From an uncultured Gemmatimonadales bacterium (GTDB lineage Bacteria > Gemmatimonadota > Gemmatimonadetes > Longimicrobiales > RSA9), in the NCBI GenBank assembly GCA_963741945.1, contig CAVUKA010000001.1, positions 288,001-352,000 on the forward strand: DNA of 64,000 bases, read 5' to 3'. A program made the translations under genes and the position numbers. Each line of letters starts with the position of its first letter. Within the stretch, counting starts at the first letter, position 1. Shown here piece after piece: positions 7,911 through 29,481 of the stretch. The notes below the pieces were generated by a model. The model ran no database searches. It was given only the letters and a program-made list of their open reading frames with translations, and was not told where the DNA came from.

Positions 7911-7947
7911 GGCCGATGGCCGACTACGTTCGGAAAGGGAGGCTGTC

Positions 7948-10843: not shown

Positions 10844-11622
10844 CGGAGCTCGAAACCGTGCGCGTCGCCGCGGACGAGGGCGTGGCGACGGTCACCGTGG
10901 ACCGGCCGGAGCGGCGGAATGCGCTGAACGCCGTGGTGCGCCGCGAGCTCACGCGCGTGGTGGAGAGGCTGGCGGGCGAGGACCACGTGCGCGTGGTGGT
11001 GTTCACGGGCGCCGGCGAGAAGGCCTTCATCGCAGGCGCCGACATCGGTGAGTTCGCCGAGCGCACGCCCCTCCAGCAGCGGGCGGCGATGGAAGGGCTG
11101 CGAGTCTACGACGCCATCGCCGCGTTCCCGAAGCCGACGATCGCGTCGATCAACGGCTACGCCCTGGGCGGCGGGTGCGAGCTGGCCCTGGCATGCGACC
11201 TGCGCATCGCCGCCCGCTCCGCCCGGCTCGGTCAGCCCGAAGTCAATCTCGCCCTGCTCCCGGGCGGCGGCGGGACGCAGCGGTTGCCGCGGCTCGTGGG
11301 CCTCGGCCGCGCCATGCGGCTGATCCTCACCGGCGAGATCATCACTGCGGAGGAAGCCGAGCGGATCGGGCTCGTGGACGAGCTGGTGGACGACGACGCG
11401 CTCGCCGCCCGCACCCGCGAGCTGGCCGCCTCCATCGCCGGCCATTCCCCGGTGGCGCTCAAGCTCATCAAGGAAGCGGTGCGCGCGTCCGCGGAGCTGC
11501 CGCTGAGCGCGGGACTGGCCCTCGAGCGAGAGCTCTTCCTCTCGGCGTTCGCAAGCGAGGATCGTGTGGAAGGAGTGGCCGCGTTCCTGGAGAAGCGGGC
11601 AGCCGTGTTCAAGGGGAGGTGA
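10840..11622 (+). CDS. enoyl-CoA hydratase (PaaF-like)
   Basis: AFIAGADI, ALGGGCE, GQPEVNL, GGTQRLPR. Confidence 0.92.
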   Translation: MTELETVRVAADEGVATVTVDRPERRNALNAVVRRELTRVVERLAGEDHVRVVVFTGAGEKAFIAGADIGEFAERTPLQQRAAMEGLRVYDAIAAFPKPTIASINGYALGGGCELALACDLRIAARSARLGQPEVNLALLPGGGGTQRLPRLVGLGRAMRLILTGEIITAEEAERIGLVDELVDDDALAARTRELAASIAGHSPVALKLIKEAVRASAELPLSAGLALERELFLSAFASEDRVEGVAAFLEKRAAVFKGR

Positions 11623-11624
11623 CC

Positions 11625-11882
11625 ATGCCCAGGAATCCGTTCGGCGACGATCGCGGCGACGCACCGCGGGCCGCCAACCCGTTCGGCGAGGAGACGCCGG
11701 CGTCGCCCGACCCCGACGCGGACCCGGCCGACACGATCGCGTACTCCGCCGCTCGTATTCGGCGGTTGAAGTCGCTGGTCGGTGCGGAGGGGCTCACGCT
11801 GTCCGCCACGAGGGAGCTCCTGGATCACGTGAGCGCCGCGCTGGACGCGGCAGCCCGTGCGCTGCGGGGGCGCGAGCGCTAG
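11625..11882 (+). CDS. small hypothetical protein (85 aa)
   Basis: GGAGGT RBS; ATG 2 nt after the upstream stop; MPRNPFGDD...ANPFGEE followed by a helical C-terminus. Confidence 0.6.
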   Translation: MPRNPFGDDRGDAPRAANPFGEETPASPDPDADPADTIAYSAARIRRLKSLVGAEGLTLSATRELLDHVSAALDAAARALRGRER

Positions 11883-11921
11883 AAGGGGCTGGGCCCCGGC
11901 GTTCCGGAGCCGCCGGGCGGA

Positions 11922-12383
11922 TCAGGCCGCCGGGCTCGCGTCCTCCGGTGCGGGCTGGCCGTTCTGCTGCAGCTCGGCCGCCCGGGCATCCAGCGCTGCC
12001 GCCTCGGCCTCTTCCTCATCCAGCTCATCGGGCACCATGTCGGGATGAGCTTTCCTCGGGGTGCGACTGAGGAGACGGACCATCAGGATTCGCTGCGCCC
12101 GCACGTCGTGCCCCATGTCGACTACCAGCCGCACGAGGTCGCCACCCCCCCAGAGCACCACCGCCACGACGGCGGTACGGGCCGTTTCCCCCAGGAGCGC
12201 CGGGAGCGAGCTGGCCCCCGTCATGCGCAGACCCGCAATGAACTCCGCGGCCAGCGCGACGAAGATGAACACGGCCGCGGCCTTGAAGATCGTGGCCACC
12301 CACCGCAGTCCGGTGTACGGCTCAAGGTCCGTGCTGCGGATCGCGCCGGTCCTGCGCACCCGCGATCTCTCCTGATCTGCCAT
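11922..12383 (-). CDS. hypothetical two-TM membrane protein
   Basis: Two hydrophobic helices and an acidic tail; sits downstream of the rpmA terminator. Confidence 0.7.
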   Translation of the reverse strand: MADQERSRVRRTGAIRSTDLEPYTGLRWVATIFKAAAVFIFVALAAEFIAGLRMTGASSLPALLGETARTAVVAVVLWGGGDLVRLVVDMGHDVRAQRILMVRLLSRTPRKAHPDMVPDELDEEEAEAAALDARAAELQQNGQPAPEDASPAA

Positions 12384-12452
12384 GCCGACCGCCCTGTTCC
12401 AGTTGCCGGGTCATGCGCCCGGGATGCACGTTCGGGGCCACGCACGGGCCTG

Positions 12453-12485
12453 AAAAAGCCCCCCGCGGCCATCACCGCGAGGGGC
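12453..12485 (-). terminator. intrinsic terminator after rpmA
   Basis: GCCCCTCGCGG-TGATGG-CCGCGGGGGGC followed by TTTTT on the minus strand. Confidence 0.8.
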
Positions 12486-12509
12486 CTCCAGCGCCCGGTC
12501 CGGCCGGCG

Positions 12510-12767
12510 TCACTCCGCCGGGTAGACCGATATCTGCTTGCGGTCGCGGCCCCGCCGCTCGAACGTTACGATCCCGTCCGACAGCGCGAACAGGGTGTCA
12601 TCCTTCCCCCGGCCGACGTTCCGGCCCGGATGGAACTTGGTCCCGCGCTGCCGCACCAGGATGTTTCCCGCCAGAACGCTCTCGCCGCCGTACTTCTTCA
12701 CGCCCAGATACTGCGCATTCGAATCGCGGCCGTTCCGGGTCGAGCCGACGCCTTTCTTATGTGCCAT
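12510..12767 (-). CDS. rpmA: 50S ribosomal protein L27
   Basis: [16 protein letters not shown]...ILVRQRGT. Confidence 0.99.
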
Positions 12768-12781
12768 ATGCTACCTCCCGC

Positions 12782-13096
12782 TCAGCCGGCGTTGATCTGA
12801 TCGATCCGGACCGCCGTGAACTTCTGACGGTGGCCCTGCTTGCGACGGTAGTTCTTCCGCCGCTTCCACTTGAACACGATCACCTTCTTGCCCTTCCCGT
12901 GCTCCACCACCTCACCGGTGACGGAAGCACCTTCCACGCTCGGCGCACCCACCTTCACGCCGTCGTCGGTCTGGGCGACGAGGACGTCATCGAACGTCAC
13001 CGTCTCCCCGGGCTCCGCCTTGAGCGACGGGACCTTGATCGTCTGTCCGGGCTCGGCCCGGAACTGTTTCCCGCCAGTGCGGATAATCGCGTACAT
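12782..13096 (-). CDS. rplU: 50S ribosomal protein L21
   Basis: [11 protein letters not shown]...KQGHRQ. Confidence 0.99.
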
Positions 13097-13198
13097 ATCG
13101 GCTTGTCTTCAGGTTCGTGTACAGACGGAGGAAGTTGGGTCCTCGATCCGGTTTCGTCAACCCCGGGAACGGCGTGGGTCCATGGACCCGTGGGCGCG

Positions 13199-14728
13199 TC
13201 AGACGGCGTAGCGGGTGGTCACATCCGTGTGGGCGGGCCCGGAGAGGAGGCGGAACTCGTCCGCCTTCATGAGCGGGTCGTCGCGCATGTCGAGGTCGAG
13301 CTGGAGGCGACCGGCCAGGCGCCGGAGGAAATCGGGCTCGTCCTCGAGGATATGGAGCGCCACCTGGGGGTGCAGCCGGATGGAAAGGCGCCGGTCGGCG
13401 CCATTCACGGCGGCCCTGCGGAGCGCCCGCTCGATGCGCCGCACCACGGTCTCGGGGGTGAAGACCCGGCCAGCGCCCTGGCAGTGGGCGCACGGCTCGG
13501 TCAGCGAGTAGTAGAGGCTGGGGCGGACGCGCTGGCGCGTCATCTCCACCAGTCCGAGCTCGGAGACCTGGAAGGCGCGGGTCCGTGCGCGATCGCGGTT
13601 CAGGTAGGTACGGAGCTCCTGGAGCACCCGGTCCTGATTGGTCTTCGTCTCCATGTCGATGAAGTCGACCACGATGATGCCGCCGATGTCGCGGAGTCGG
13701 AGCTGGCGGGCGACCTCCCGGGCGGCGTCGAGGTTGGTCTTCAGGATGGTCTTCTCGGGATCCTTCTTCCCCGTGTAGCGGCCCGTGTTCACGTCCACGG
13801 AGACGAGGGCCTCCGTGGGCTCGATGATCAGGTACCCGCCGGAGGGGAGGTCGACGCGTCGCTGGAACGCCTCCCGGATCGCCTCCTCGACGCCGTACTC
13901 GTCGAAGAGAGGGAGCGGTTCGTCATAGAGATGGACGCGGGACATGAGGTCGGGATCGATCCCGTCCAGGTAGCGCTTGATCTCCTCGTGGACCTCCCCG
14001 CTATCCACCTTGAGGGAATCCACCTTGTTGGTGAAGATGTCCCGGATGATCCCCTTGGTGAGGCCGGCCTCGCGGTGGACCAAGGCTGGGGCCCGCACGC
14101 TGCGGGCCTTCTTCTGGATCTGCTTCCACGTGCCGAGGAGTGTCTTGAGCTCCCGCTTGAAGAGCTCCGGCGTGAGCTCCTCCCCGGCCGTCCGGATGAT
14201 CAGGCCGCCGGCGCCGTCCGGGAGATTCTCCCTGGCCATGCGACGCAGCCGGGCGCGCTCCTCGCGATCATCGATCTTGCGGCTGACGCCGACATGATCG
14301 GACTGCGGCATGAGGACGAGGAACCGTCCGGGCAGGGAGATCTGGCTGGTGACGCGGGGGCCCTTCGTGGAAATGGCCTCCTTGGTCACCTGCACCAGGA
14401 TCTTCTGCCCCTTCTTCAGTACTTCCTGGATGGGCGGGTGGCTGCGCCGGCCGTTGCCGCCGTTGCCGCCGTTGCCATTGCCGTTTTCGTCGTCATCCTC
14501 CTCCTCGGCCAGATCGGAGCCGTGGAGGAAGGCGGCCTTGTCCGTGCCGATCTCGACGAAGGCCGCCTGGATCCCGGGGAGGACCGCCTGCACCTCCCCG
14601 AGGTAGATGTCACCGACAATGCGGCCGGCGTCCGGCCGTTCGACCAGGAACTCGACGAGGACGTCGTCCTCGAGTATCGCCACGCGCGCTTCCTGCGGCG
14701 CGGACGAGATCAAAATTTCTCGCTTCAT
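13199..14728 (-). CDS. ribonuclease E/G family
   Basis: GDIYLG, S1 domain, KGPRVT, DVNTG, GGIIVVDFIDM, CAHCQG zinc link. Confidence 0.95.
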   Translation of the reverse strand: MKREILISSAPQEARVAILEDDVLVEFLVERPDAGRIVGDIYLGEVQAVLPGIQAAFVEIGTDKAAFLHGSDLAEEEDDDENGNGNGGNGGNGRRSHPPIQEVLKKGQKILVQVTKEAISTKGPRVTSQISLPGRFLVLMPQSDHVGVSRKIDDREERARLRRMARENLPDGAGGLIIRTAGEELTPELFKRELKTLLGTWKQIQKKARSVRAPALVHREAGLTKGIIRDIFTNKVDSLKVDSGEVHEEIKRYLDGIDPDLMSRVHLYDEPLPLFDEYGVEEAIREAFQRRVDLPSGGYLIIEPTEALVSVDVNTGRYTGKKDPEKTILKTNLDAAREVARQLRLRDIGGIIVVDFIDMETKTNQDRVLQELRTYLNRDRARTRAFQVSELGLVEMTRQRVRPSLYYSLTEPCAHCQGAGRVFTPETVVRRIERALRRAAVNGADRRLSIRLHPQVALHILEDEPDFLRRLAGRLQLDLDMRDDPLMKADEFRLLSGPAHTDVTTRYAV

Positions 14729-14739
14729 ACCTCACGTGT

Positions 14740-15960
14740 TCATCTCCCGTCGAAAGTCTCATCGAAGAGCTGGCGCGCAATGACGAGGCGCTGGATCTCG
14801 TTCGTGCCTTCGCCGATCTGACAGACCTTGGCATCGCGCATGTGCCGTTCAACGGGATACTCGTTCGTGTAACCGTAGCCGCCCAGGACCTGCACGGCCT
14901 GGGTGGTGATGTCCATTGCGGCATCGCTCGCGTACAGCTTGGCCATGGAGGCCTCCTTCGTGTACGGGCGACCCGTTTCCTTCAGCCACGCGGCATGATA
15001 GACCAGGTGCCGCGCGGCCTGTATTCGTGTGGCCATATCGGCCAGCCGGAACTGTATACCCTGGAAGTCCCGCAGAGGTCTGCCGAACTGCCTGCGTCGG
15101 TCGGAGAAGCGGAGCGCGGTCTCATACGCGCCCTGCGCGAGCCCGAGTGCCAGCGCCCCCACGCCGATGCGTCCGGCGTCCAGGGTCTTCATGAAATTGA
15201 CGAACCCCCGCCCTTCCTCGCCCAGCCGGTTTCCGGTCGGGACCCGTACGTCGTCGAAGAGGAGCTCGCGCGTGTCGGACGAGCGCCAGCCCATCTTGTC
15301 CTCTTTCTTTCCCGCGCGCACGCCGTCCATGAACGGCTCGAGCTCCGGTGCGTGCCCAACGCCGACGCGGTCCGCGTCCGCGCGGTCCGTGGTCTCCTTG
15401 GTCACGATGAAGCTCGTGATCCCGCGCGGGCCCTGGCTGCGGTCGGTCACGGCCGTGGCCACGAAGATCTCACCCACACCGGCGTGGGTGATGAAGATCT
15501 TGCTTCCATTGAGCCGATAGTGCCCGTTCTCCCGAACGGCGGTGGTGCGGCTGCCACCGGCATCGGAGCCGGCGTCGGCCTCCGTGAGTCCGAACCCGCC
15601 CAGCACCCTCCCGGCCGCCAGCAGAGGCACGTAGCGCTGGCGCTGCTCCGGAGTGCCGAAATTGAGGATCGGCGAAAGCGCGAGCGTGCTGTGGGCGCTG
15701 ACCGTGATGGAGTGGCTCGCATCGATCCGGGCGAGCTCTTCCACGGTCAGGATATAGGTCAGGTAATCGCGGCCGAGACCGCCGTACTCCTCCGGCACGT
15801 TCACCCCGAACCAGCCGCGCTCCGCCATGCTGGCCACGTTGTCCCAGGGGAAGCGGCTCTGCTCGTCCAGCGCTCCGGCCACGGGCGCGATTTCCGCCTC
15901 GGCGAAAGCGCGAACGTCGCGGCGGTGGGCCTCGTGCTCGTCGGTCAGATAGGGCTGCAT
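14740..15960 (-). CDS. acyl-CoA dehydrogenase
   Basis: GLTEADAGSD, LNGSKIFIT, KMGWRSS, RRQFG, GGYGY, IGEGTNEIQR. Confidence 0.95.
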   Translation of the reverse strand: MQPYLTDEHEAHRRDVRAFAEAEIAPVAGALDEQSRFPWDNVASMAERGWFGVNVPEEYGGLGRDYLTYILTVEELARIDASHSITVSAHSTLALSPILNFGTPEQRQRYVPLLAAGRVLGGFGLTEADAGSDAGGSRTTAVRENGHYRLNGSKIFITHAGVGEIFVATAVTDRSQGPRGITSFIVTKETTDRADADRVGVGHAPELEPFMDGVRAGKKEDKMGWRSSDTRELLFDDVRVPTGNRLGEEGRGFVNFMKTLDAGRIGVGALALGLAQGAYETALRFSDRRRQFGRPLRDFQGIQFRLADMATRIQAARHLVYHAAWLKETGRPYTKEASMAKLYASDAAMDITTQAVQVLGGYGYTNEYPVERHMRDAKVCQIGEGTNEIQRLVIARQLFDETFDGR

Positions 15961-18471: not shown

Positions 18472-19602
18472 CTAGGTGCTGGAAGCCGCCGCGCGCGACG
18501 GAGGGCCGCTCATCGCCGCGTGGATCTCCTCGAGCTGCTGCGCGCGATGCTCGCAGGTGTGGCCGGCGAGGATCGTGCGACGGCCGTGCTCGCTCAGCCG
18601 CTGGCGCGCTTCGGCGTCGGACGCCAGGACGCGGATCGCCGCCCGCATCTCCGCCGGCGTTTCCACGCGAAGATAGTCCTCGCCCGCGCAGAACAGCCCT
18701 TCGGTGTCCGGCCACGGCGTCGAGATGAGTGGAATGCCGGCGGCCAGCGCCTCGAAGGGCCGGATGGTGGGGATACCCGGGAGGCGGTCCAGGTACGGGC
18801 CTCGGGGAATGTGGATGGTCATGCGTGCGCGGGAGAACGCGTCGGGCACGTGGTAGTTGGCGATCCAGCCGCGGAAGTCGATTCCGGCGTCCTCGAGCTC
18901 CGCGCGCGCTTCCTCGGGATAGCGCACCCCGTGCACGGCAAAGCGAAGCTCCGGCAAGGCGCGGGCGGAGTCGACGAGGAAGGCGCGGATCTCGGCGCTG
19001 CGCTCCTCGTCGCCCCAGTTGCCGATCCACACCACGTCGTCCGTCTTCTCGCGGTCGCGGGGGAAGAAGAGGGTGGTGTCGGCGGCCTCGTGGAACGTCC
19101 AGACCCGGTCCATGCCGTAGCGCGTGCGCCAGACGTCCGCGAGCGAGTCGCCGAACGCGAGCACACCGTCATAGTGCTGGAGGTTCAAGCTGGCCATCAC
19201 CCCCGGCGCGCTGACGGCGCGGTGGTGGGTGTCGTGAAAGAGGAGCGTGAAATCGTCGCGCCGCCGCCTCACCAGGCCGACCGCGGCCACGAGCCGGGGA
19301 TCGTTGAACTCATGGACGAGAACCAGGTCAGCGCCGCGGGTGAGCTCGTCCACCTCATCGACGATCCCCTCCCATGGCCCGTACATGCGGACGTCCAGGT
19401 CGTGGAAGACGCGGGCGAATTCCACGATCGGGCCATGGCCGTGATCCTCCATGAGGCTGTCCGTGGACCAGTTCCTCCAGCGCTCGCACGCCGTGACATC
19501 GTGCCCCCGGGCCGCCAGGGCCCGCATGAGACCACGCAGGAAATGGGCGTTCCCGTGGCTCCAGTCGCTCACGACCGAGTGGACGAAGAGGACGATCTTC
19601 AA
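18472..19602 (-). CDS. CgeB-family (spore-maturation-like) glycosyltransferase
   Basis: SDWSHGNAHFLRGL, HDTHHRAVS, FHEAAD, WIGNWGDEER, GIPTIRPFEALAAG (GT-B, Glyco_trans_1_2-like). Confidence 0.88.
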   Translation of the reverse strand: MKIVLFVHSVVSDWSHGNAHFLRGLMRALAARGHDVTACERWRNWSTDSLMEDHGHGPIVEFARVFHDLDVRMYGPWEGIVDEVDELTRGADLVLVHEFNDPRLVAAVGLVRRRRDDFTLLFHDTHHRAVSAPGVMASLNLQHYDGVLAFGDSLADVWRTRYGMDRVWTFHEAADTTLFFPRDREKTDDVVWIGNWGDEERSAEIRAFLVDSARALPELRFAVHGVRYPEEARAELEDAGIDFRGWIANYHVPDAFSRARMTIHIPRGPYLDRLPGIPTIRPFEALAAGIPLISTPWPDTEGLFCAGEDYLRVETPAEMRAAIRVLASDAEARQRLSEHGRRTILAGHTCEHRAQQLEEIHAAMSGPPSRAAASST

Positions 19603-19738: not shown

Positions 19739-20413
19739 TCAGAGGGCGCCCCAGGGCGGCCTGATCGTGCGATTGACACCCAGCACACGCCCGCCGCCCG
19801 CGCGTAGCACCACCGTGCTGACGGAACCGGGGGCGACATCGAAGCGGAGGATGTGGTCGAAGGAGAGGCCCAGGAAGTGGGCGATGAGGGGACGAATCAC
19901 GTCGCAGTGGCTCACGACGACCACCGCCGGGTTCGCCCGACGGGCAGCAGCCTCATCGGTCACACCGCTCACCCCGGGAGCGTGCGTCCGGGACGGCTCC
20001 CATTCGGCATCAATGGCCCGGAGCCCGGCCAGGGCGCGCTCCACGACGTCCGCCATGCTCTCACCACCGGGCGGGCGGGCGCTCCCACGATGCTCGTTCC
20101 ATCGGCGCCAGTCCTCGCGACCCTCGAGCTCGTCGAAGCGCCCGCCCGTCCAGGCTCCGAAGTCCACTTCGTCGAAAGCAGGGTCGATGCGTACCGGGAG
20201 TCCGTGGACGGCGGCGATGGGCTCTGCGGTCTCGCGGGCCCGCTCGAGCGGGCCGGTGTGGACGGCGACGATGGGCGCGGGAGCGAGATGGAGGGCGAGG
20301 TCACCGGCCTGGCGACGCCCCTCGTCGTCGAGCCCGAACCCCGGCGCGCGTCCGGCGAGCATGCGGCCGACGTGCGCGGCGCTGGCGTGGCGGGTGAGCA
20401 GGAACCGTGTCAC
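19739..20413 (-). CDS. histidine phosphatase family protein
   Basis: LTRHA, GPLERARETA, EVDFGAW, PGGES, VVSH. Confidence 0.88.
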   Translation of the reverse strand: MTRFLLTRHASAAHVGRMLAGRAPGFGLDDEGRRQAGDLALHLAPAPIVAVHTGPLERARETAEPIAAVHGLPVRIDPAFDEVDFGAWTGGRFDELEGREDWRRWNEHRGSARPPGGESMADVVERALAGLRAIDAEWEPSRTHAPGVSGVTDEAAARRANPAVVVVSHCDVIRPLIAHFLGLSFDHILRFDVAPGSVSTVVLRAGGGRVLGVNRTIRPPWGAL

Positions 20414-20508: not shown

Positions 20509-21408
20509 ATGCTGACGTCGATCAAGATCTGGAACGAGCCGAACAACGCTTCCCACTGGGACATCGAGCTGGACGAGGGATGGCCGCGGTTCGCGGAGCT
20601 GCTGAAGCACGGCGTAGCAGGTGTGCGGTCGCACTCGGACCTGCCGATCGTTCTGGGAGGCATGTCTCCCATCGACCCGCGCTTTCTGCGGCGCCTGGAC
20701 GAACGGGGAGCGCTGGACGGCGTCGACGTGCTGGCGGTGCACGGCTTCCCGCTGGACTGGAACCTGTGGCCGCTCGAGGAATGGCCCGCCCAGATCGAGC
20801 GCGTGCGGCGGGAGTTCGGGCGCCCCGTATGGGTCACCGAGACGGGCGTGTCTTCCTTCGCCAGTGGCGAGAAAGCCGCGTGGGGGATGCGTCGGATGAA
20901 GGAAGTACTGTCGGGCGAGCGCGTCTACTGGTACACCCTGCTGGACCTCGAGCCGGCGATCGAAGCGACGACGCGCCACAAGCAGGCGGAGGGAAGCGGC
21001 TACTTCCGGCATTTCCATTTCGGTCTTCTGACGCATGACGGCAGGCCGAAGCCGGCGCTCCCGGAATACGATCCGACACTGGGGATCTGCCAGTGGTTCC
21101 AGTACCGGGACGAGCGCTCGCTGGAGCTGGCGGTGGAATGGCTGCATCGGCTCGGCGTCCAGCACGTGCGGACGGGACTGAGCTGGGCGGAGAGCCATAT
21201 GGAGGAAGGGTGGGCGTGGTTGGACACCGTGATGTCGGCGCTCGAGCCGTTCGACGTCTGCGCCACCCTCTGCTTCACGCCGCCGAGCATCGGTGTGCGG
21301 CCGCACCACACCAGCCCGCCCCGCGAGGCGTCGGCGTTCGGCGATTTCGCGGCCAGGGTGGCGCAGCGGTACGCGCCGGAAGCGGTTGCCCAGGTCGTCA
21401 TCCCGTGA
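20509..21408 (+). CDS. clan GH-A glycoside hydrolase-like protein ('beta-xylosidase'-type), apparently circularly permuted
   Basis: IWNEPNN (acid/base) at the very N-terminus; AVHGFP; VWVTETG (nucleophile). Confidence 0.82.
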   Translation: MLTSIKIWNEPNNASHWDIELDEGWPRFAELLKHGVAGVRSHSDLPIVLGGMSPIDPRFLRRLDERGALDGVDVLAVHGFPLDWNLWPLEEWPAQIERVRREFGRPVWVTETGVSSFASGEKAAWGMRRMKEVLSGERVYWYTLLDLEPAIEATTRHKQAEGSGYFRHFHFGLLTHDGRPKPALPEYDPTLGICQWFQYRDERSLELAVEWLHRLGVQHVRTGLSWAESHMEEGWAWLDTVMSALEPFDVCATLCFTPPSIGVRPHHTSPPREASAFGDFAARVAQRYAPEAVAQVVIP

Positions 21409-21732: not shown

Positions 21733-22434
21733 TCAATCCGTCCGGATCAGCTTGAGTCCCACAGACGTGTACGGATACCCGTGATAGTCGCGCATGCGCG
21801 GCTTCACGGCTTCCCAGTCCACATCCAGGTCCAGCTCGCCTGCCAGCCGCCAGCCGGGGGCATCCAGGATCAGGCGACGGAGGCGTTCTTCATCGAACAC
21901 CCGCCACTCCACCCTGAACTCCAGCCCGGGGCTGCGGTGCCAGATCTCGGCGTCGGCGTCGTCGTAGAAATCGGTGGTGAGGAGCAGCGGCGCCCCCGGT
22001 CGGACGACGCGCCGCAACTCGGCGAGCGCTTTCCGTACCTCCGGCTCCGGCAGGTGCTCGATCACCGAGATGCAGAACACCGCGTCGAACGCCGCATCGG
22101 GCAGAGGCAGCCGGGTCATGTCGGAGCGGACGTACTCCACCTCCACGCCATGTCGCTCCCCGAGGCTGCCGTCCATGTGCAGGTCGATGGCCGTCACCCG
22201 GTGGCCCTGCCGCGCGAGGTATACGGGAAAGATGGAATCGCCGGCGCCCACGTCGAGGACGCGCGACGCCGGCTGCAGGGCCGCGCGCTCCAGCGCCCAG
22301 GGGTACTCCCAGCGCTTTCCCGGGTGCAGGTAGGAGACCGGATCGGCCGCCACCAGAGCATCCATCTCCTCGAGGACGGCGCGGAAGTCGTCGCGTCGGA
22401 GCTCGTCGAGATCCAGCAGGCGATTGGTGGTCAT
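21733..22434 (-). CDS. class I SAM-dependent methyltransferase
   Basis: KRWEYPW, VLDVGAG, FDAVFCISVIEH, RPGAPLLLT. Confidence 0.88.
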   Translation of the reverse strand: MTTNRLLDLDELRRDDFRAVLEEMDALVAADPVSYLHPGKRWEYPWALERAALQPASRVLDVGAGDSIFPVYLARQGHRVTAIDLHMDGSLGERHGVEVEYVRSDMTRLPLPDAAFDAVFCISVIEHLPEPEVRKALAELRRVVRPGAPLLLTTDFYDDADAEIWHRSPGLEFRVEWRVFDEERLRRLILDAPGWRLAGELDLDVDWEAVKPRMRDYHGYPYTSVGLKLIRTD

Positions 22435-22504
22435 GATCCCGGGTGCGCCTTGCAGCGGGGAGCGGCTTCGGGCCGGCGAGGGCTGCTTCGAGGACACGGG
22501 CGAG

Positions 22505-22520
22505 TGCAAGAGGCGCGCCG
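22505..22520 (-). promoter_or_regulatory. candidate sigma54 promoter for the methyltransferase
   Basis: CGGCGCGCCTCTTGCA, about 70 nt upstream of ATG 22434. Confidence 0.55.
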
Positions 22521-22560
22521 GCCACGGGCCGGCGCCCGCCCGACCGCCGTGCGCAGGTGC

Positions 22561-22576
22561 CGGCACTCCGGTTGCG
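22561..22576 (+). promoter_or_regulatory. candidate sigma54 promoter for the phosphatase-HAD-kinase operon
   Basis: CGGCACTCCGGTTGCG, about 70 nt upstream of 22647; divergent from the previous site. Confidence 0.6.
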
Positions 22577-22646
22577 GTACGGAGGATGGTAACCACGAGA
22601 TGGGAGGTGTTTCATCGAAACGGAAGCGACGGTCCGGGGGCGGGGG

Positions 22647-23255
22647 GTGTTGAAGACGCGGTCGGCGGGGCCGCCAAAGACGCTCTACCTGGTGCGGCAC
22701 GCCGTCACGGCGGCGAACCTGGCGGGGCGCAGGCTGGGCACGCTGGATGAGCCGCTCGGCCCCGACGGACGCCGGCAGGCGCGCGATCTCGGGCGCCGGC
22801 TCCGGCATCTGCGGGTGGACGCGCTGTGGAGCAGCCCGCTCGCGCGGGCGCTCGAAACGGCGCGGATCCTTGCGCCCACGCTCGGCTGCGAAGTCCGGGT
22901 GGAGCCGGACCTCCGGGAAATGGCCCTTGGGCCGTGGGAAGGTCTCGATGATGAGCAGATCGCGGAGCAGTACCCGCTGGAGCACGCGCGCTGGCAATCC
23001 GATCCGGCGGGGCTGGACATGCCCGGCCACGAGGGTCTGGCGGCCACGCAGCGACGCGTGGTGCGGGCGCTCGATCGGGTGATGGAGGAAGCGAATCGGG
23101 TGTTGTGCGTGACGCACCTGGCCGCGATCCGGCTGGCCTGGGCCCATTACGAAGGGCGTGACCTGAACAGCTACGCCAGCATCACCCCCGACCACTGCTC
23201 TCTGATGGTGCTGGAGCGGGACGGCGACGGGACAGCCTGGCGCCGCGTGGCGTGA
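22647..23255 (+). CDS. histidine phosphatase family protein
   Basis: LYLVRHA, WSSPLARALETA, LREMALGPWEG, CVTH. Confidence 0.88.
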   Translation: MLKTRSAGPPKTLYLVRHAVTAANLAGRRLGTLDEPLGPDGRRQARDLGRRLRHLRVDALWSSPLARALETARILAPTLGCEVRVEPDLREMALGPWEGLDDEQIAEQYPLEHARWQSDPAGLDMPGHEGLAATQRRVVRALDRVMEEANRVLCVTHLAAIRLAWAHYEGRDLNSYASITPDHCSLMVLERDGDGTAWRRVA

Positions 23256-23275
23256 AGCGAGGAGGCGAAGCGGCC

Positions 23276-23635
23276 ATGGAGAAGCGGATCTGTGTGGACC
23301 TGAACGGCGTGCTGGACACGTACCACGGGTGGCAGGGCGAAGTGACGTGGCACTCCCCTCGTCCCGGTGCCGCGGAGTTTCTCGAGGCGCTCGCCGCCCG
23401 TGGGCACGAGGTCGTGATCCTGACGACCCGGGACCCGGATACCGCCCGGGCGTGGCTGGCCCGTCACGGGCTGGCCCGGCACGTGTCGCTGGTGACCGAT
23501 CGAAAGCTGCCGGCGCTGGCCTACGTGGACGATCGCGCGGTCCCCTTCCGGGGTGACTTCCGCGAGACGCTCGCCACGCTGGAGCGTTTCCGTCCGCACT
23601 GGTGGGACGGAGGAGAGGCGGTGGGATCGGGATGA
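23276..23635 (+). CDS. minimal (capless) HAD-superfamily protein
   Basis: ICVDLNGVL (motif I, DxN variant), ILTTR, K, YVDDRA; GGAGG RBS. Confidence 0.78.
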   Translation: MEKRICVDLNGVLDTYHGWQGEVTWHSPRPGAAEFLEALAARGHEVVILTTRDPDTARAWLARHGLARHVSLVTDRKLPALAYVDDRAVPFRGDFRETLATLERFRPHWWDGGEAVGSG

Positions 23636-24639
23636 GGGGGCGCCGTCCGGCTTCCGCGGAAGTGCACGAGGCCGCGGGCGTGGTCCTGGATCACATCGGA
23701 GAAGCGGCGGATGGCCCGGCCGACTACCACGTGATCCGGCGGGACCGCCACAGCAACAGCGTGGACGAAGTCCATCTGGGCGATGGCCGGATCCTCGTGA
23801 TCAAGCGTGCCAGGGATCCGATGAACATGTACCGCTTCCGTGCATCCCGCCTGGCCGCACAGCTGCTGGCCGATGTGCCGGGGCTGCGCACACCCCGCTA
23901 TGTCCCCACGCCCGACGAGCTGACGCATGAGGCCGTGCTCGTGTACTGGTGGGTGTCCGGCCCGACCCTGCACGAGCTGTGGCCGGAGGTCGCGGAATCG
24001 GAGCGAGGCCGGGTGGTCGAGAGCTGGGGGCGGCTGATGCGTCGCATGCAGACCGTGGCGCTGCCCGGTCACGGCCCGATCGTGGAAGCGGCGCAGTCGG
24101 ACACCACGCTGGAGCGCTACATGACGCGCGACCTGCGCGAGCGCCTGCGTCCCGCCGTAGCGGAGAAATGGCCGCACGGAGTGGAATCCGTGGACCGCCT
24201 GCTGGAGGCGGTGGGGGCGCTGGGCCGGGCCACGGACGGGCGGCCTCCCGTCCTCGTCCACAACGACCTCTTCGACCAGAACGTGATCTGCCGGAACGAT
24301 CCGGTGATCGAGTGCGTGGGGGCCATCGACTTCGAGGACGCGTTCGCCGGTCCCCCCGAAGCGGAGCTGGCGAAGACCGAGATCCTGCACGGTCCGCTGT
24401 TCGGCCAGCCGTGGGAGTGGGACTGGCTCCCGCACCTGGTGGCCGGCTGGGGGCGCACACCTGATGCTCTCGTCGTCTCGTTCTTCCGCGCGTACCAGCT
24501 GGTGAACATGGGCTTCCACGCGGCGCTCACCGGTCTCGACCACCACGCAGCGGCGGTGGCGTCCACCGCAGCGGCCGAGAGCAGGAGCCTGGGATCCGGG
24601 CTCAGCCACCGGGAGGTCCACCAGCGGGCGTCCGGGTGA
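23632..24639 (+). CDS. aminoglycoside-phosphotransferase/choline-kinase-like kinase
   Basis: LVIKR, VLVHNDLFDQNVI, AIDFEDA, GPPEAELA. Confidence 0.82.
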   Translation: MRGRRPASAEVHEAAGVVLDHIGEAADGPADYHVIRRDRHSNSVDEVHLGDGRILVIKRARDPMNMYRFRASRLAAQLLADVPGLRTPRYVPTPDELTHEAVLVYWWVSGPTLHELWPEVAESERGRVVESWGRLMRRMQTVALPGHGPIVEAAQSDTTLERYMTRDLRERLRPAVAEKWPHGVESVDRLLEAVGALGRATDGRPPVLVHNDLFDQNVICRNDPVIECVGAIDFEDAFAGPPEAELAKTEILHGPLFGQPWEWDWLPHLVAGWGRTPDALVVSFFRAYQLVNMGFHAALTGLDHHAAAVASTAAAESRSLGSGLSHREVHQRASG

Positions 24640-26339
24640 TCGTCTACCGCGACGTGGTCCGGACGGTCGCCACCGACTCCTTCATCCACGCGCTCCACCG
24701 TCTGGCACGGGATCACCGGGCCACGAGCTTCCTCGTGGAAGTGGGTCGACTGGAGCAGGCCGCCGTGGATGCGTCGAGCGCGGAGCGCGACGACACCGGT
24801 GCCGTCGAGCGCGCCCTCCGATCCGCGAGCCTCGCGGCCGGACGGGCGCTCACCGCCGCGACCCTGGGGCAGTCGCGCCAGGCGATGGCGGCGGCGCTGG
24901 ACCGCGTCGACTCCGTCCGCGCCCACCTGCCGGCAGCGCTCGAGCTGCGCGAGCCCGAAGGATACGCCCATTACGCCCTCGATCCGCTGGCCTACGCGGA
25001 GGCCGCCCGCTCGTACAGTCGTTGGGCGGGGGCGCGGTGCTCCCGCGCGGTGGTGGTGGGGATCCGGAGCATCGGCACGAGCCTCTCCGCGGTTGTGGCC
25101 GTGACGCTGAACACGGCGGCCTCCGCGACGGTGCGCCCGCGGGGTGAAACAGGAGAGCGCCACATCCGCGCATCGGAGCGTCTCAGCGCCCTGGTCCGGG
25201 AGGCTGTCGAAGCGGGCGGCGACGCGCTGCTGGTGGACGAGGGGCCCGGCGTCACGGGCGAGACGTTCGAGTGCGCCGCCCGCTGGCTCCGCCGGATCGG
25301 GGTGCCCGCCTCCCGGATCGTCCTCTTCCCCAGCCACGACGGGGCGATGCCGCTGGCGCCGGAGTCGCGCCGGCGCTGGTTTCGCAGCACGCTCCGCTTC
25401 CCGCCACCGGTCGCGGACGAGCGCATGACCCGCATCGCGGAGCGCAGGGGCTGGGCGCCCCCGATCGACCTCTCGGCCGGATCCTGGCGGCGGAAGGTGC
25501 CCGGGGCGGAAGAGCTGCCGGCGGTCCCGCATTTCGAGCGAGTGAAGGCCCGCGTGCCCGGCGACACCGGTCTCGGCCACATGCTCCGCTACGCCGGCCT
25601 CGGCGCCTCGCTCGACCGGTGGCTGCACCGGGCCGGGGTGCTCGGGGAGCTGGTCCCGGGTCCCGTCGAACCGACAGGATCCGGGTTCATTGTCCGCCCC
25701 TGGGTAGACGGCGCCCCTGTGGCGCGGCGGCGCGAGCTGCCCGGCGACCTCGCGGCCGCCATGGTTTCGTACGTCGGGGCGCGGGCGGACCGGCTCGCGA
25801 CCGGTGAGCCGGTAGACCGGGACTGGTGGGTACGACTGCTCCTCGAAAACGGCGCCGAGTCCGGTGCACCCTCCGCGGCGCTGGCATGCGCCGCCCGCGC
25901 CCTCGAGCGCTTGCCCCAGCGCGAGGCCGTGATTCCCGACGGCCGCCTCCAGCCATGGGAGTGGATCCGCACGCCCGCAGGCACCCTGCGGAAAGTGGAC
26001 GCCATGGATCACGGGGACGGGCTGCGCGTGCCCGGGCCGACGGACGGAGCGTGGGACGCGGCCGGAGCCACCATCGAGCTGGGACTGCACGGGCCGGACG
26101 CACGCGCGTTCCTCCACGCCGCGTCCCGCGAGCGCGGCATGCCAGCGGGGGAGGAGGAGAACGTCCTGAGCCCGCGGGCGCTGGCCGCCTATCGGCCGGT
26201 CTACGCCGCCGCGTGCTATGGTGACGCGGAGCTGGCGGCGCGGGAATCGAGCGATGCCGAAGACAGGGTGCGACTCCGCTGCGAGGCCGCGTTCTACGCG
26301 GCGGCGCTCGAAGCCGCGCTGATCGAAGGGTTATCCTAG
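24636..26339 (+). CDS. uncharacterised PRTase-like plus kinase-like fusion protein
   Basis: PEGYAHYAL, VVGIRSIGTSL, LLVDEGPGVTGET (PRPP-loop-like), then DGRLQPWEW...KVDAMDH...AWDAAG. Confidence 0.7.
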   Translation: MIVYRDVVRTVATDSFIHALHRLARDHRATSFLVEVGRLEQAAVDASSAERDDTGAVERALRSASLAAGRALTAATLGQSRQAMAAALDRVDSVRAHLPAALELREPEGYAHYALDPLAYAEAARSYSRWAGARCSRAVVVGIRSIGTSLSAVVAVTLNTAASATVRPRGETGERHIRASERLSALVREAVEAGGDALLVDEGPGVTGETFECAARWLRRIGVPASRIVLFPSHDGAMPLAPESRRRWFRSTLRFPPPVADERMTRIAERRGWAPPIDLSAGSWRRKVPGAEELPAVPHFERVKARVPGDTGLGHMLRYAGLGASLDRWLHRAGVLGELVPGPVEPTGSGFIVRPWVDGAPVARRRELPGDLAAAMVSYVGARADRLATGEPVDRDWWVRLLLENGAESGAPSAALACAARALERLPQREAVIPDGRLQPWEWIRTPAGTLRKVDAMDHGDGLRVPGPTDGAWDAAGATIELGLHGPDARAFLHAASRERGMPAGEEENVLSPRALAAYRPVYAAACYGDAELAARESSDAEDRVRLRCEAAFYAAALEAALIEGLS

Positions 26340-27483
26340 GCGGTGCCCGTGAGCGCGCCGCGGCGGTGCGGCAATCGCTCCACGCGCCATCGGACATCCT
26401 CCACTCCAATGCGGTGAATGCAGCCGCGATCCGCAATGAGACAGCGTCCCGCGTGCCAGCATTCCGGTGGCGAAAGTGAGTGGTGGTCGCGGTATCCGCA
26501 CTGGAGTGCTCGCGGCTCCACGGCCATGATGTCCCTGCCGGGTGGCAGGAAGATCGAAGCCCGGGTCGGCCCGAACACCGCCACCGTCGGGACCGCCACG
26601 GCGCCAGCCAGGTGCATGAGACCCGTGTCGTTGCAGACGAGGCCGCGGCAGCGGCGAAGGAGGGCGGCCGTGCGGAGGAGGTGCTCGGCGCCGACCCGGA
26701 TCGCGCGCTCCCCGTGCCGCATGGCATCCTGCACCGCCCGCCCCGCTCCCGCCTGCGGTCCCTCGATCAGCAGGACCGGGACGTCCTCCCGCTCGATGAC
26801 GTGATCCGCCACGGCGGCGAAGTGCTCGAGTGGCCAGCGCTTCAGCGCCGTGGAGGCCACCGGCGAGACGGCGAAGGGGCGGCGTGTGATCCGTGGCCGG
26901 CGAGGAACGATGCCGCGAAAAGCTCGTCGCTCTCTCGCGGGTGCACTGCCGGCGTGATGCCGCGGGGCACGTGGAGGCCCCAGCCCGAGCGCACGCCGGC
27001 ACGGATCGCCTCGGTCCCGCTTTCACCGGATGCCAGCGCCGCTTCCTCAGCGCAGGGATCGCCCTCCAGCGAGCGGATCCCGAGCGACCAGACCGCGCGG
27101 CCCACGGCCGTAGGGGCATGCGTGGCATCGAGCACGAGGTCGAAACGCTGTTCCCTGATCCAGGCGGCAAGGGCTTCTCGCGTGCCCGGTTCGCCGGAAT
27201 CCCACCGGTGGCTCAAGCGCCAGCGGCTCGTGCCGAGAACCGCGTCCACGCGGGCATCTCCGTCCAGGATCTCATCGGCCGGAGGATTGCCGAGTGCCAC
27301 GATCCGGGCGCCGGGGATCGCCCGCCGCAGCGCGCTGATGGCCGGGAGCGCCATGACCACATCGCCGATTCCGTAGCGCAGGCAGACCAGGACGTTGCGG
27401 GAGTGCAGAGGGAGCACGAGTGCCGTGGCGTTGGAGGCATGTCCGACCGGTGCAGGACACCGCCCGATCGCAGTGATTCCCAC
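26336..27483 (-). CDS. glycosyltransferase family 9 (heptosyltransferase-like), split by a 1-nt frameshift near 26890; start uncertain
   Basis: N-half YGIGDVVMALPAI...FDLVLD; C-half KRWPLEHF, CNDTGLMHLAGAV, VFGPT. The frames join if one base is added at CAC-GG-ATC. Confidence 0.8.
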
Positions 27484-27990: not shown

Positions 27991-28254
27991 TCACGCAGCC
28001 ATCCGGGAGATCTGGACGCGCCAGACCTCGGGCCCCTGCTCCAGGTACTCCCACCCGAACTCGCCCTCGTGCTCGAACTGGAACTGGTAGCGGAGCGGCT
28101 TCGGATCGTGGTCGTTGACCAGGATGAACGCGTCCCCGGGTTCCAGCGCCCGGAACGTGTCGAAGATCGTGGGATGCTTCTCCCTGGGCGGGATCGGCCT
28201 CACGTCCAGGACCTTCTCGGCATTCTCCTCGTTCCGGCTCGCTGCTTCAGTCAT
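27991..28254 (-). CDS. DUF2249 domain protein
   Basis: LDVRPIPPREKHPTIF...LVNDHDPKPLRYQF...GPEVWRV. Confidence 0.88.
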   Translation of the reverse strand: MTEAASRNEENAEKVLDVRPIPPREKHPTIFDTFRALEPGDAFILVNDHDPKPLRYQFQFEHEGEFGWEYLEQGPEVWRVQISRMAA

Positions 28255-29146
28255 CGGTCTCTTTCCCTTCCCTGTGTCTGATGAACACCCGGACCAGGTC
28301 CGGCTGCTGTTCGCGCGTTTCCCACGTGAACCCGCGCTCCTCCAGCGTCGGCAGAAGGAAGCGCGGCTCACGGACGTTCACCTGCACCAGCGTATGTCCG
28401 ACGGGGAGACGCTCCAGCGCCGCGAGCGTGCGCACCATCGGCTCGGGCGGCTCCAATCCCCGCACATCCAGGACGACCACGCCACCGTCCGCGACATCCG
28501 CATCGGCTTCCGGCCGCCCGTCGGTGCCACCCTCCGCCGCGTGCGGAGGAGAGCCGGACGTCTCCGTCGAGGGGTCGGCTGCCCAGAACCAGATCACCCA
28601 ATCGTCGTCCGCCCGCCGCTCGGTCCAGTTTTGCAGGCCCTGCTTCTCGAACACGGCGTAGAGCGGGGCGGGCTCGAAGATCGCCCGCAGTCGCAGCGCG
28701 CCATTTTCCGGGATCTCACGTTTCGCAGCCATGATCCGGCTGAAGGGCTCCTCGCCCCGGCGCAGCGCGTCCCGGACGTCGAGGTCGACGATCCGGTCTT
28801 CCGGGATCGCCGCCAGCGCGGCCGGTGTCCGCCCCTCCGGGTCGCCCGCGCCGGCGTCCGGTCCGTCCCGGTCCGGGGATGCCGGCGCTGCGCCCTCCGG
28901 CGAGGCGGCCTGGCCGCCGTCCGCCCCGGCCCGGCGCTCGACAGCGGCATTGAGGCGGGCGACGAGGCTCTCCGCATCCATGCCGGCCACCCTCGCCGCC
29001 TGGTTCACGGTGACGAGCCTGGCCATCACCTTGCGCATGGCCGGGCTCCGCAGGCGCCCGAACGCGGGGGAGGCCGCAACGAAGACGTCGATCAGCGACT
29101 CGTCGCTCGCGAGGACGTCGGCCACGCGGTCCGTCCCCCGGATCAC
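28247..29146 (-). CDS. DUF1858-like plus two DUF2249 domains
   Basis: N-terminal F..LRSP.MR...[35 protein letters not shown] overlap with the upstream stop. Confidence 0.8.
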
Positions 29147-29481
29147 CACGCCCCCTCCCGAATCATCCCCGGGTTCCACGCGGGCTCCCACACCAGCCGG
29201 GCATCCACGTCGCGGACACCCTCCAGGGCGGAGACCACGGCCACCACCGCATTGGAGATGTGGGCTTCCATCGGGCAGCCACGCGTCGTGAGCGTGTAGT
29301 CGATCGCGACCACCCCCGCATCGATGCGCACGCCGTACACGAGCCCCAGCGTCACGATGTCGAGCCCGATCTCGGGATCCACCACCTGCCCGAGCGCCGA
29401 TCGCACCGCACTCTCGGTGACCGCGGGCGCGGGACTCCCCCCCGAGAGCGCCGCGAGGGCGCCTTCGAACGATTCGGTCAT
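29143..29481 (-). CDS. DUF59/SufT/PaaD-like metal-sulfur cluster assembly factor
   Basis: [31 protein letters not shown]. Confidence 0.9.

Follow-up and report, generated by a model that had tools for sequence, protein, structure and literature searches.

The open reading frame (ORF) at 24636..26339 on the plus strand of a 64,000-nucleotide (nt) stretch from an uncultured Gemmatimonadales bacterium (assembly GCA_963741945.1, contig CAVUKA010000001.1, positions 288,001 to 352,000 of the forward strand; the whole stretch is hereafter called the window) was found to belong to a real, widely conserved and unstudied enzyme family, which joins a phosphoribosyltransferase (PRTase)-like domain to a kinase-like domain. 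Judging from the conserved residues and the gene contexts, this target protein of 567 amino acids (aa) probably makes a phosphorylated sugar intermediate, which is then trimmed by neighbouring phosphatases in the course of glycan synthesis. Our preferred reading, to which we give a probability of about 0.4, is that the protein is a phosphoribosyl transferase using phosphoribosyl pyrophosphate (PRPP), with the kinase fold holding the acceptor and the 5-phosphate being removed afterwards. The GTG start codon of the target is credible, since it shares the sequence GTGA with the TGA stop of the ORF before it and the first residues M-I-V-Y-R-D are common to the target and to homologues from many organisms, which share the start. 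The family is present in a single copy in the source genome, and the GC fraction around the site in this GC-rich window is 0.69–0.75.

The original prediction, made from the letters alone, had read two strings as PRTase-type loops and four further strings as the elements of a degenerate APH-like kinase. All six are present in the ORF translation in the order claimed, namely VVGIRSIG (region of aa 139–147), LLVDEGPGVTGET (aa 198–210), FIVRPWVDG (aa 351–359), DGRLQPWEW (aa 435–443), KVDAMDH (aa 453–459) and AWDAAG (aa 472–477), and they are the most conserved parts of an alignment of 57 family members that are 31–60% identical to the target. This alignment has 36 invariant columns in all, most densely placed in the PRPP-type loops and the kinase cleft, and motif conservation in these sequences lies far above what chance would give.

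Family Size, Distribution and Database Coverage

A word-indexed search, in which 8000 candidates were scored, yielded 431 proteins at E ≤ 0.001, nearly all of them 540–620 residues long and matched over their full length. When 1.84 billion representatives, each standing for a cluster at 50% identity, were searched exhaustively with HMMER, 1938 of them matched at E ≤ 1e-3, of which 1409 did so at ≤ 1e-10 and 605 at ≤ 1e-30. In a scan of species genomes (one genome per species), at least 599 stretches were matched and at least 555 were confirmed. The carriers include Gemmatimonadota (Longimicrobiales and Gemmatimonadales), Acidobacteriota, Myxococcota (Archangium, Corallococcus and Pyxidicoccus), Alpha- and Gammaproteobacteria (Rubellimicrobium, Azospirillum, Microvirga and Methylocaldum), Chloroflexota, Nitrospirota, Planctomycetota and others.

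No Pfam (E ≤ 0.1) or NCBIfam model reaches the target protein. When the 57 aligned members were scanned singly, one of them (homologue P0010) touched PF00156 (E 2.2e-5; 24.3 bits, with a cut-off of 26.3) and one touched PF01636 (E 0.0053), the target itself lying below the Pfam gathering threshold. The ESM Atlas returned solely clusters named 'hypothetical protein', with scores of at least 0.96, one of which carries PF00156 on 35% of its members. Against the PDB sequences, the full-length profile reached choline kinases at best E values of 0.13 and 0.34, with the WDLA-like stretch as the sole part of the target that could be aligned to them by sequence, plus a spurious ribosomal match, and the profile of the N-terminal domain found no real match. 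Literature searches on the family, on PRTase–kinase fusions and on TIGR04290/Rta_06860 returned nothing relevant, most subscription journals lying outside these searches. Fused forms longer than 993 aa did not occur in the search, which is weak evidence, and split forms were not identified, the short matches of 283–386 aa being possibly fragments from short contigs. A reading as a defence system was dropped, PADLOC having no match for the target.

Predicted Structure and the PRTase-Like Core

An AlphaFold2 model of the target, built with the 57-sequence alignment, has a mean predicted local distance difference test (pLDDT) score of 94.5 and a predicted template modelling (pTM) score of 0.93. 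It was compared by VIA with every chain of 48,161 PDB representatives and, in addition, by Foldseek. Both folds that had been proposed from the sequence alone are confirmed in this predicted model, and the proposed check, AlphaFold followed by Foldseek, applied here to the whole protein and to aa 1–262 alone, recovered a PRTase fold in the first half and a kinase fold in the second.

The N-terminal part (aa 1–108; 24636..24959, plus strand) consists of helices and one short strand and holds the invariant residues E40, D45 and E108-G109. No listed VIA row was centred on it in the searches with the whole model and with aa 1–262, none of which was aimed at aa 1–108 alone; most VIA alignments begin near aa 109, and the rows starting at aa 1–31 align just 128–142 residues. 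The following segment (aa ~109–262; 24960..25421, plus strand) forms a type I PRTase/PRPP-synthetase-like alpha/beta core. With the whole model, the VIA matches of this core in the PDB include a PRPP synthetase (3mbi_A; Z 12.9, root-mean-square deviation (rmsd) 2.5 over 126 aligned residues), the adenine phosphoribosyltransferase APRT (4trb_A; Z 12.8) and HGXPRT (Z 12.0). When aa 1–262 were folded alone with 32 sequences (pLDDT 94.5), the 30 best VIA rows all had the PRTase fold, with Z values from 9.3 to 7.6 (9.3, 9.3 and 9.0 for the 3mbi_A, 4trb_A and HGXPRT types, respectively), and the best Foldseek match was APRT (E 9.3e-3, probability 1.00), none being at or below 0.001. The target thus has the five-stranded parallel alpha/beta core that defines type I PRTases, as seen by both VIA and Foldseek. 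The two tandem PRTase-like domains that define PRPP synthetase, which binds ATP between them, are absent; there is a single core, and the remainder consists of the helical part and the kinase fold.

Type I PRTases and PRPP synthetase share a layout of pyrophosphate (PPi) loop, flexible loop and PRPP/ribose-5-phosphate loop, and the classical PRPP-binding motif (PROSITE PS00103) comprises a hydrophobic strand, two acidic residues and a [ST]-G-x-[ST] phosphate loop. In the target, the stretch G142-x-R144-S-I-G147-T-S-L150-S151 (25059..25088, plus strand) stands in the place of the PPi loop, between strand 139–143 and helix 146–157; G142, R144, G147, L150 and S151 are invariant in 57/57 sequences, and the other positions vary. 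A basic loop, R167-P168-x-G170-x4-R175 (25134..25160, plus strand; R167, P168, G170 and R175 in 57/57), comes after strand 163–166. From the strand order of the model, we infer that this loop lies at the place of the flexible loop of PRTases and PRPP synthetase, the basic flexible loop of PRPP synthetase presumably having its counterpart in R167-P-R-G...R175. After strand 197–200, the acidic pair and phosphate loop D201-E202-G-P-G-x-[ST]-G208-x-[ST] were observed (25236..25265, plus strand), in which D201, E202, G203, P204 and G208 are invariant in all 57 sequences. The target reads L-L-V-D-E-G-P-G-V-T-G-E-T here, so that the acidic pair and the T-G-x-T are present, with a loop one residue longer and G-P-G in the place of hydrophobic residues. 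The conservation of DEGPG, which had been proposed as a check, holds well, with DEGP[GD] in 235 of the 238 relatives of at least 500 aa that were used for the motif census. The reading of VVGIRSIG and the second string as PRTase-type loops is supported by the core fold together with the invariance of G142, R144, G147, D201, E202 and G208, the second string departing from the classical motif as described.

A Kinase-Fold Domain with a Rewired Catalytic Loop

The C-terminal part (aa ~263–567; 25422..26336, plus strand; aa ~259–567 in the structural matches) adopts the choline-kinase/APH fold, that is, the bilobal protein-kinase-like fold of the PF01636 family. VIA placed the choline kinase LicA highest (4r77_B; Z 16.7, rmsd 4.4 over 256 aligned residues), with other scores of 16.1–16.3 for choline/ethanolamine kinases, 16.1 for homoserine kinase, 15.5 for glucosamine kinase and 15.2 for N-acetylhexosamine kinase (NahK), and APH enzymes are also among the matches. 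With the whole model, Foldseek gave 86 matches at E ≤ 0.001, among which macrolide phosphotransferases ranked first (3.4e-6). The claim that FIVRPWVDG, DGRLQPWEW, KVDAMDH and AWDAAG follow the order of the APH elements is supported by this fold and by the strand positions.

The catalytic loop of the domain is D435-G-R437-L-Q-P-W-E442-W443 (25938..25964, plus strand), in which D435, R437 and E442 are present in 57/57 sequences. In comparison with the canonical HxDxxxxN, D435 would stand for the His, R437 for the catalytic Asp and E442 for the Asn. The strands 430–432, 443–445 and 451–453 frame D435...W443 and K453-x-D455-x-x-D458-H459, and the register H/D/N = D435/R437/E442 would follow from the model if E442 starts strand 7 and D455 follows strand 8. 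An hhalign comparison with the neighbouring APH family pairs H210/D212/N217/D233 with D435/R437/E442/D455, and K58 with R318; it is non-significant overall (probability 0.07, E 0.72), and solely the local pairing at HNDLFDQN was used, together with the strand positions. The segment K453-V-D455-A-M-D458-H459 (25992..26012, plus strand; K453, D455 and H459 in 57/57) appears to be the equivalent of IDxE/DFG, with D455 directly after strand 451–453, where the PF01636 family has its metal-binding Asp, and K.D..[DAGS]H was found in 222/238 relatives. The stretch W473-D474-A-A-G-...-E481 (26052..26078, plus strand; W473, D474 and E481 in 57/57) is the xWDLA equivalent of choline kinases (ChoK) and APH enzymes.

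The second proposed check was the conservation of DGR..P.EW; in the motif census, the strict form D[GAS]R-x4-E[WV] was present in 210/238 relatives. The loop of the remaining 28 was viewed in a window ahead of the first [AS]WD; in 16 of these the Arg position is occupied by R, K or H and the neighbouring residue is changed (e.g., D-N-R, D-G-K, D-G-H), three differ at the Glu/Trp only, and in nine the viewed window missed or clipped the loop, which makes them uninformative. A canonical HxDxxxxN ahead of the KxD segment, i.e., a Brenner motif with an Asp base, occurs in 0/238 relatives. Elsewhere in the domain, the strand-3 position 318 is basic in 54/57 sequences (38 with R, 16 with K), the other three having S, the conserved residue of alpha-C is R332 (52/57) and not Glu, and a 20-residue insert, in which W284-R285 and E301-R302-x-K304 are invariant, takes the place of the glycine-rich loop.

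As read from these alignments, the loop is rewired and not decayed; the catalytic base has gone, a cationic residue has come in and both metal-ligand positions are still acidic. The rewiring that had been claimed is thus seen at its centre, where the position of the catalytic Asp holds an invariant Arg. The further proposal of a novel bifunctional enzyme or a pseudokinase was upheld only in part. The domain is not an ordinary APH kinase, because the canonical catalytic Asp position holds an invariant Arg, and it is unlikely to be a decayed pseudokinase, since E442 and D455 are acidic and invariant and the strand-3 residue is basic in 54/57.

Linkage to Phosphatases

A comparison set of 80 related loci, with about 6 kb on each side of the target homologue, was searched by tblastn with the genes that neighbour the target in the window. 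A phosphatase ORF was detected in 38/80 loci and lies within 150 nt of the target ORF in 24/80. The abutting phosphatases belong to five mutually unrelated groups: histidine phosphatases (4), GmhB-like HAD-IIIA proteins of 166 residues (6), small HAD proteins (6), DSP/PTP (5) and PHP (3). In addition, five homologues (748–779 residues) carry a C-terminal GmhB-like HAD fusion, which is 47–56% identical to the free-standing GmhB-like neighbour. Since the phosphatase types swap at the same position and one of them is also fused, the sequences indicate that the target and the phosphatase act on a common intermediate. The dedicated phosphatase that characterizes the bipartite glycan ribofuranosyltransferases is found here as well, the window itself holding two histidine phosphatases and a small HAD. 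Histidine phosphatase relatives occur in 20/80 loci and small HAD relatives in 7/80.

Conserved Glycan-Synthesis Neighbourhood

The recurrent partners were obtained by clustering ORFs of at least 90 aa by all-against-all blastp, based on crude ORF calling and after removal of the antisense shadow clusters 2, 3, 6, 14 and 15, and were counted over 81 sources (the 80 loci and the window). The most frequent were Glyco_trans_1_2 glycosyltransferases (27/81, often in three or four copies) and a methyltransferase of the NCBIfam family TIGR04290 (389.7 bits, above the cut-off of 300; 27/81), followed by an RmlA/GalU/HddC-like sugar-1-phosphate nucleotidyltransferase (18/81), glycosyltransferases (GTs) of family GT4 (14/81) with a second GT4-type transferase (8/81), a NAD-dependent epimerase/dehydratase (9/81, 10 ORFs), a GFO/IDH/MocA oxidoreductase (9/81), a GNAT of the Acetyltransf_6 type (8/81), a PIG-L deacetylase (7/81) and an ABC exporter (5/81). 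Myo-inositol-1-phosphate synthases were found in 4 + 4 sources (8 loci), and the pathway product may contain an inositol- or glucosamine (GlcN)-based unit. Judged by these partner genes, the target sits in a glycan or glycoconjugate synthesis cluster. A gene for a PslG-like protein is present in 35/80 loci, at 45–56% identity in 34 of them and at 71% in the syntenic locus L007. The minimal contexts, in Rubellimicrobium and Azospirillum, hold GlgX-like, nucleotidyltransferase and GT genes only and do not narrow the substrate.

One gene order recurs in six Gemmatimonadales loci (L011, L012, L017, L020, L039 and L041), with a GFO/IDH/MocA oxidoreductase, a GT4, three Glyco_trans_1_2 and the TIGR04290 methyltransferase preceding the target, and the PslG-like gene, a nucleotidyltransferase, a Glyco_trans_1_2 and a histidine phosphatase following it. 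In loci from other phyla, the target is preceded by PIG-L deacetylase, GT4 and GNAT genes in one block.

Proposed Reaction and Rival Explanations

The two folds, the invariant residues, the gene cluster and the association with phosphatases were observed, and from them we infer the donor, the acceptor and each chemical step of the following scheme. The target would be a single enzyme that binds a ligand in each of its two lobes and serves the cytoplasmic steps of a glycan or glycoconjugate pathway. The PRTase-like lobe would bind a 5-phosphoribosyl donor, most simply PRPP, with D201-E202 holding the ribose hydroxyls via Mg2+, the G-P-G-x-[ST]-G-x-[ST] loop holding the 5-phosphate, and R144, R167 and R175 holding the diphosphate. 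The kinase-fold lobe would not be a classical kinase, since its catalytic Asp is replaced by an invariant Arg; it would instead hold the acceptor, which may be a sugar or else a glycan or lipid-linked intermediate that bears phosphate, by the E442/D455 metal pair, the basic residues R285, R302, K304, R437 and K453 and three invariant Trp, and perhaps also provide the base. The retained Mg2+ ligands and the many invariant Arg and Lys suggest a phosphate-bearing acceptor, the three invariant Trp are compatible with a sugar, and a cation at the position of the catalytic base would fit an anionic or non-deprotonated ligand better than the hydroxyl acceptor of a kinase. The acceptor would then receive ribose-5-phosphate, from which the dedicated phosphatase, adjacent or fused, would take off the 5-phosphate.

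Such a division of labour has precedents in the PRPP-dependent glycan ribofuranosyltransferases, in which a PRTase-like transferase works together with a phosphatase that takes the 5-phosphate off, as in CriT/CrpP of Bcs3 (PMC10299916) and in a second such pair, gPRT/PRP (Kelly et al. 2022, as summarised in PMC11127046). By analogy, these pairs lend support to the PRPP-dependent transferase, having in common with the target a PRTase-fold domain whose phosphoribosyl site looks intact, a phosphatase partner and a glycan locus.

Several observations weigh against this assignment. The solved glycan ribofuranosyltransferases were not among the 50 best Foldseek/VIA rows for the N-terminal domain, although a relation may still exist, and kinship with gPRT/CriT was not detectable when the N-terminal domain profile was run against the PDB sequences. 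The domain resembles the classical PRTases and PRPP synthetase instead, and its PRPP-type loop departs from the classical one by the additional residue and by the G-P-G noted above. Moreover, the metal-ligand positions and the strand-3 basic residue are kept, as expected for an ATP-using enzyme, and the nucleotidyltransferase and the GmhB-like partner suit a kinase–phosphatase–nucleotidyltransferase route equally well. Finally, six of the ten best-listed loci (L001, L002, L003, L004, L006 and L008) are without the neighbour genes of the window within 6 kb, while the other four keep at least one.

The main rival reading is an atypical ATP-dependent sugar-phosphate kinase or diphosphokinase, which we regard as rather unlikely. 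Mg-ATP would be bound in the kinase fold and a sugar phosphate in the PRTase-like lobe, the anomeric hydroxyl or phosphate would be (pyro)phosphorylated, the phosphatase would remove the distal phosphate and the nucleotidyltransferase would make a nucleoside diphosphate (NDP)-sugar. The models for this are PRPP synthetase, which binds ribose 5-phosphate in its C-terminal domain, and the heptose route, which runs through a kinase, GmhB and a nucleotidyltransferase. PRPP synthetases are among the best-fitting PRTase-fold matches and have the lowest rmsd (3mbi_A, 2.5 over 126 residues; also 4twb, 1u9y and 7pn0), the R167–R175 loop lies at what we take to be the site of their basic flexible loop, and anomeric sugar kinases (NahK, glucosamine kinase and maltokinase) are among the structural matches of the second lobe, in which E442 and D455 are invariant and R or K occupies strand 3 in 54/57. 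For the HAD, whether fused or adjacent, the highest score was obtained with heptose-1,7-bisphosphate phosphatase (65.6 bits, which does not reach the cut-off of 178), and the RmlA/GalU/HddC-like nucleotidyltransferase is recurrent. Nucleotidyltransferases, however, are common to any glycan cluster, and a kinase of this kind would have to work with no HxDxxxxN in any of the 238 relatives, with the alpha-C Glu absent (R332 in 52/57) and with the 20-residue insert for a glycine-rich loop. In its heptose form, the idea also has to contend with the source genome, which already holds a canonical set elsewhere, with gmhA-like (176 bits), HldE-kinase-like (330 bits) and GmhB-like (121.8 bits) proteins; because of this set, the idea that the target is a missing heptose kinase was set aside.

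PRTase-fold sensors such as PurR, PyrR and ppGpp (guanosine tetraphosphate)-binding proteins exist, and the loss of the canonical catalytic Asp could also reflect a non-catalytic sensor or scaffold, in which the PRTase-like lobe senses PRPP or a nucleotide and the pseudokinase lobe regulates partners, for example the coupled APH kinase. PRTase-fold regulators and ppGpp binders, PurR and PyrR among them, do appear among the matches (5vog_A, 1o57_A and 1w30_A), the target is translationally coupled to a canonical APH gene, and genes for an extracytoplasmic function (ECF) sigma factor and a zf-HC2 (anti-sigma-like) protein stand beside the target in L004, L005 and L008, with the sigma gene alone in L001. 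Such a role is nevertheless quite improbable; about 36 polar or glycine positions that are invariant over several phyla point rather to an enzyme, the APH partner is confined to 1/80 loci, and a phosphatase partner of changing superfamily argues for a small-molecule intermediate and not for a protein–protein regulator. A prediction of the complex between the target and the coupled APH protein (score 0.00, mark 0.32) speaks neither for nor against binding. We likewise see little chance for a true bifunctional enzyme, in which a PRTase reaction and a separate phosphorylation proceed independently. Fusions of two activities are common in sugar-nucleotide pathways (e.g., HldE) and both clefts of the target are conserved, but the canonical base-bearing loop is found in 0/238 relatives, the two domains are predicted as a single rigid body (pTM 0.93) and no split forms were identified.

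Comparison with Known Systems

The gPRT + PRP and CriT + CrpP (H. influenzae Bcs3) systems resemble the target family in having a helix-flanked PRTase-like alpha/beta domain and in being encoded in a glycan locus with a coupled or fused phosphatase. The target family differs from them by a 300-residue kinase fold between transferase and phosphatase, by a phosphatase drawn from five groups and by a core that seems to have more in common with classical PRTases and PRPP synthetase than with the solved glycan enzymes.

The likeness to the type I PRTases and the PRPP synthetase C-terminal domain (PF00156 clan) covers the core (Z 9–13, rmsd 2.5–3.4 over 118–140 residues), the acidic pair and phosphate loop after the third strand, the Gly-rich Arg loop after the first strand and the basic loop between them, whereas the target lacks the nucleobase hood, has the helical N-terminal part and the kinase fold instead, and has a phosphate loop longer by one residue. 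With ChoK, APH and sugar kinases of PF01636 type (LicA 4r77, NahK 4ocj, glucosamine kinase 6hwj and maltokinase 4u94), the target shares the fold (Z 15–16.7 over ~256–278 residues), the metal-binding Asp after strand 8 (D455) and the xWDLA-like motif, and it differs in having D-G-R-x4-E for HxDxxxxN, no alpha-C Glu and the insert in the place of the glycine-rich loop. The set of a kinase-like protein, a GmhB-like HAD-IIIA and a nucleotidyltransferase recalls the heptose-nucleotide route (HldE/HddA, GmhB, HddC/HldE), and a GT9 heptosyltransferase-like gene adjoins the target in the window (1/80 loci); the kinase folds are unrelated, however, being PfkB/GHMP in that route and ChoK-like in the target.

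The arrangement of a PRTase fold with a kinase fold and the D-G-R...E loop appear to be undescribed so far. We tentatively propose, as a possible and not a probable outcome, that the kinase fold was converted, with Arg for the Asp base and Glu for the Asn, into the second lobe of a composite active site shared with the PRTase fold, which would make the family an undescribed enzyme class, either a third independently evolved PRPP-dependent glycan ribose-5-phosphate transferase or a sugar diphosphokinase making a PRPP-like activated sugar, always next to an interchangeable phosphatase and spread over hundreds of soil and sediment species. The family is large, with 1938 representatives and at least 555 species and no Pfam or NCBIfam model, and it presents two well-studied folds in a new arrangement, in which the invariant replacement of the catalytic base offers a test case for new chemistry on the kinase fold. 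If ribose is installed or a new activated sugar is made, this would account for one step of a glycan pathway that soil bacteria conserve and that is so far uncharacterised, and it would provide a new enzyme type for glycoengineering tools.

Genes Around the Target in the Window

Four genes on the plus strand (22647–26339), encoding a histidine phosphatase, a small HAD, an APH-family protein and the target, are chained by 4-nt overlaps (GTGA/ATGA), which suggests from the sequence that they form one translationally coupled unit. The first, a branch 1 histidine phosphatase (22647..23255; PF00300, E 1e-52), has alpha-ribazole phosphatase CobC as its best NCBIfam match (131.8 bits, below the cut-off of 162.9). 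The second (23252..23635, plus strand) encodes a small HAD-like protein of 127 aa (PF00702, E 1.8e-6) and overlaps its neighbours by 4 nt at both ends. This protein has D-L-N-G-V at the DxDx[TV] motif I, with the second Asp replaced by Asn, and shows no BLAST-level kinship to the GmhB-like HAD fused to other family members. The third (23632..24639, plus strand) is a canonical APH-family gene of 335 aa from the ATG at 23632 in an ORF that opens at 23602 (PF01636, E 4.4e-17), with the motifs HNDLFDQN and IDFED; H210, D212, N217 and D233 are invariant, and its 26 homologues are all PF01636. The translational coupling of the target to an APH-like kinase gene, claimed at the outset, is therefore real in the window, given the GTGA overlap and the PF01636 assignment of the upstream ORF. 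Among the 80 loci, the APH gene, the methyltransferase of the window and the GT9 gene were each found in one, the syntenic L007, so that the APH pairing recurs solely in the nearest clade; six further pairs of target and APH homologues have a longest contig of identical length, which hints at co-location without proving it.

Upstream of the chain lie a gene for an S-adenosylmethionine (SAM)-dependent methyltransferase (21733..22596, minus strand; PF08241, E 7e-20), the PslG-like GH-A TIM-barrel gene (20509..21408, plus strand; the ORF opens at 20407 and the homologues have ~295 aa), a second histidine phosphatase gene (19739..20413, minus strand; PF00300, E 5e-44) and a Glyco_trans_1_2 (CgeB-like) glycosyltransferase gene (18472..19602, minus strand; PF13524, E 2.2e-35). 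The last of these marks the upstream edge of the glycan cluster, with RecQ-like helicase and beta-oxidation genes beyond it. The PslG-like protein of the window and its homologues in L010–L080 appear to be circularly permuted; positions 2–156 of their profile correspond to PslG 131–304 and positions 197–293 to PslG 21–128, the N-terminal part opening at the W-N-E-P-N acid/base motif. This family has 80 invariant columns in 20 sequences and no NCBIfam match.

Downstream of the target, and convergent with it, is a GT9 heptosyltransferase-like gene (26336..27483, minus strand), split over two frames into the pieces 26842–27483 and 26336–26860, with PF01075 at E 1.7e-20 in the C-terminal part and heptosyltransferase I at 4.8e-7 in the N-terminal part. 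In the syntenic locus L007, GT9 is a single open frame of ~430 codons, and the split in the window may be a frameshift, a pseudogene or an assembly error. Upstream of the cluster, the region 7843–15960 of the window holds a beta-oxidation set of a thiolase, two enoyl-CoA hydratases, a 3-hydroxyacyl-CoA dehydrogenase and an acyl-CoA dehydrogenase. An 802-codon ORF at 12413–14821 (plus strand) has no Pfam match; since a 509-codon ORF overlaps it in antisense, it may be a shadow ORF of GC-rich DNA. Past the cluster on the other side, two DUF2249 genes were observed at 27991–29191 (minus strand), one of them with a DUF1858 and a TusA-like domain, and these are probably unrelated to it.

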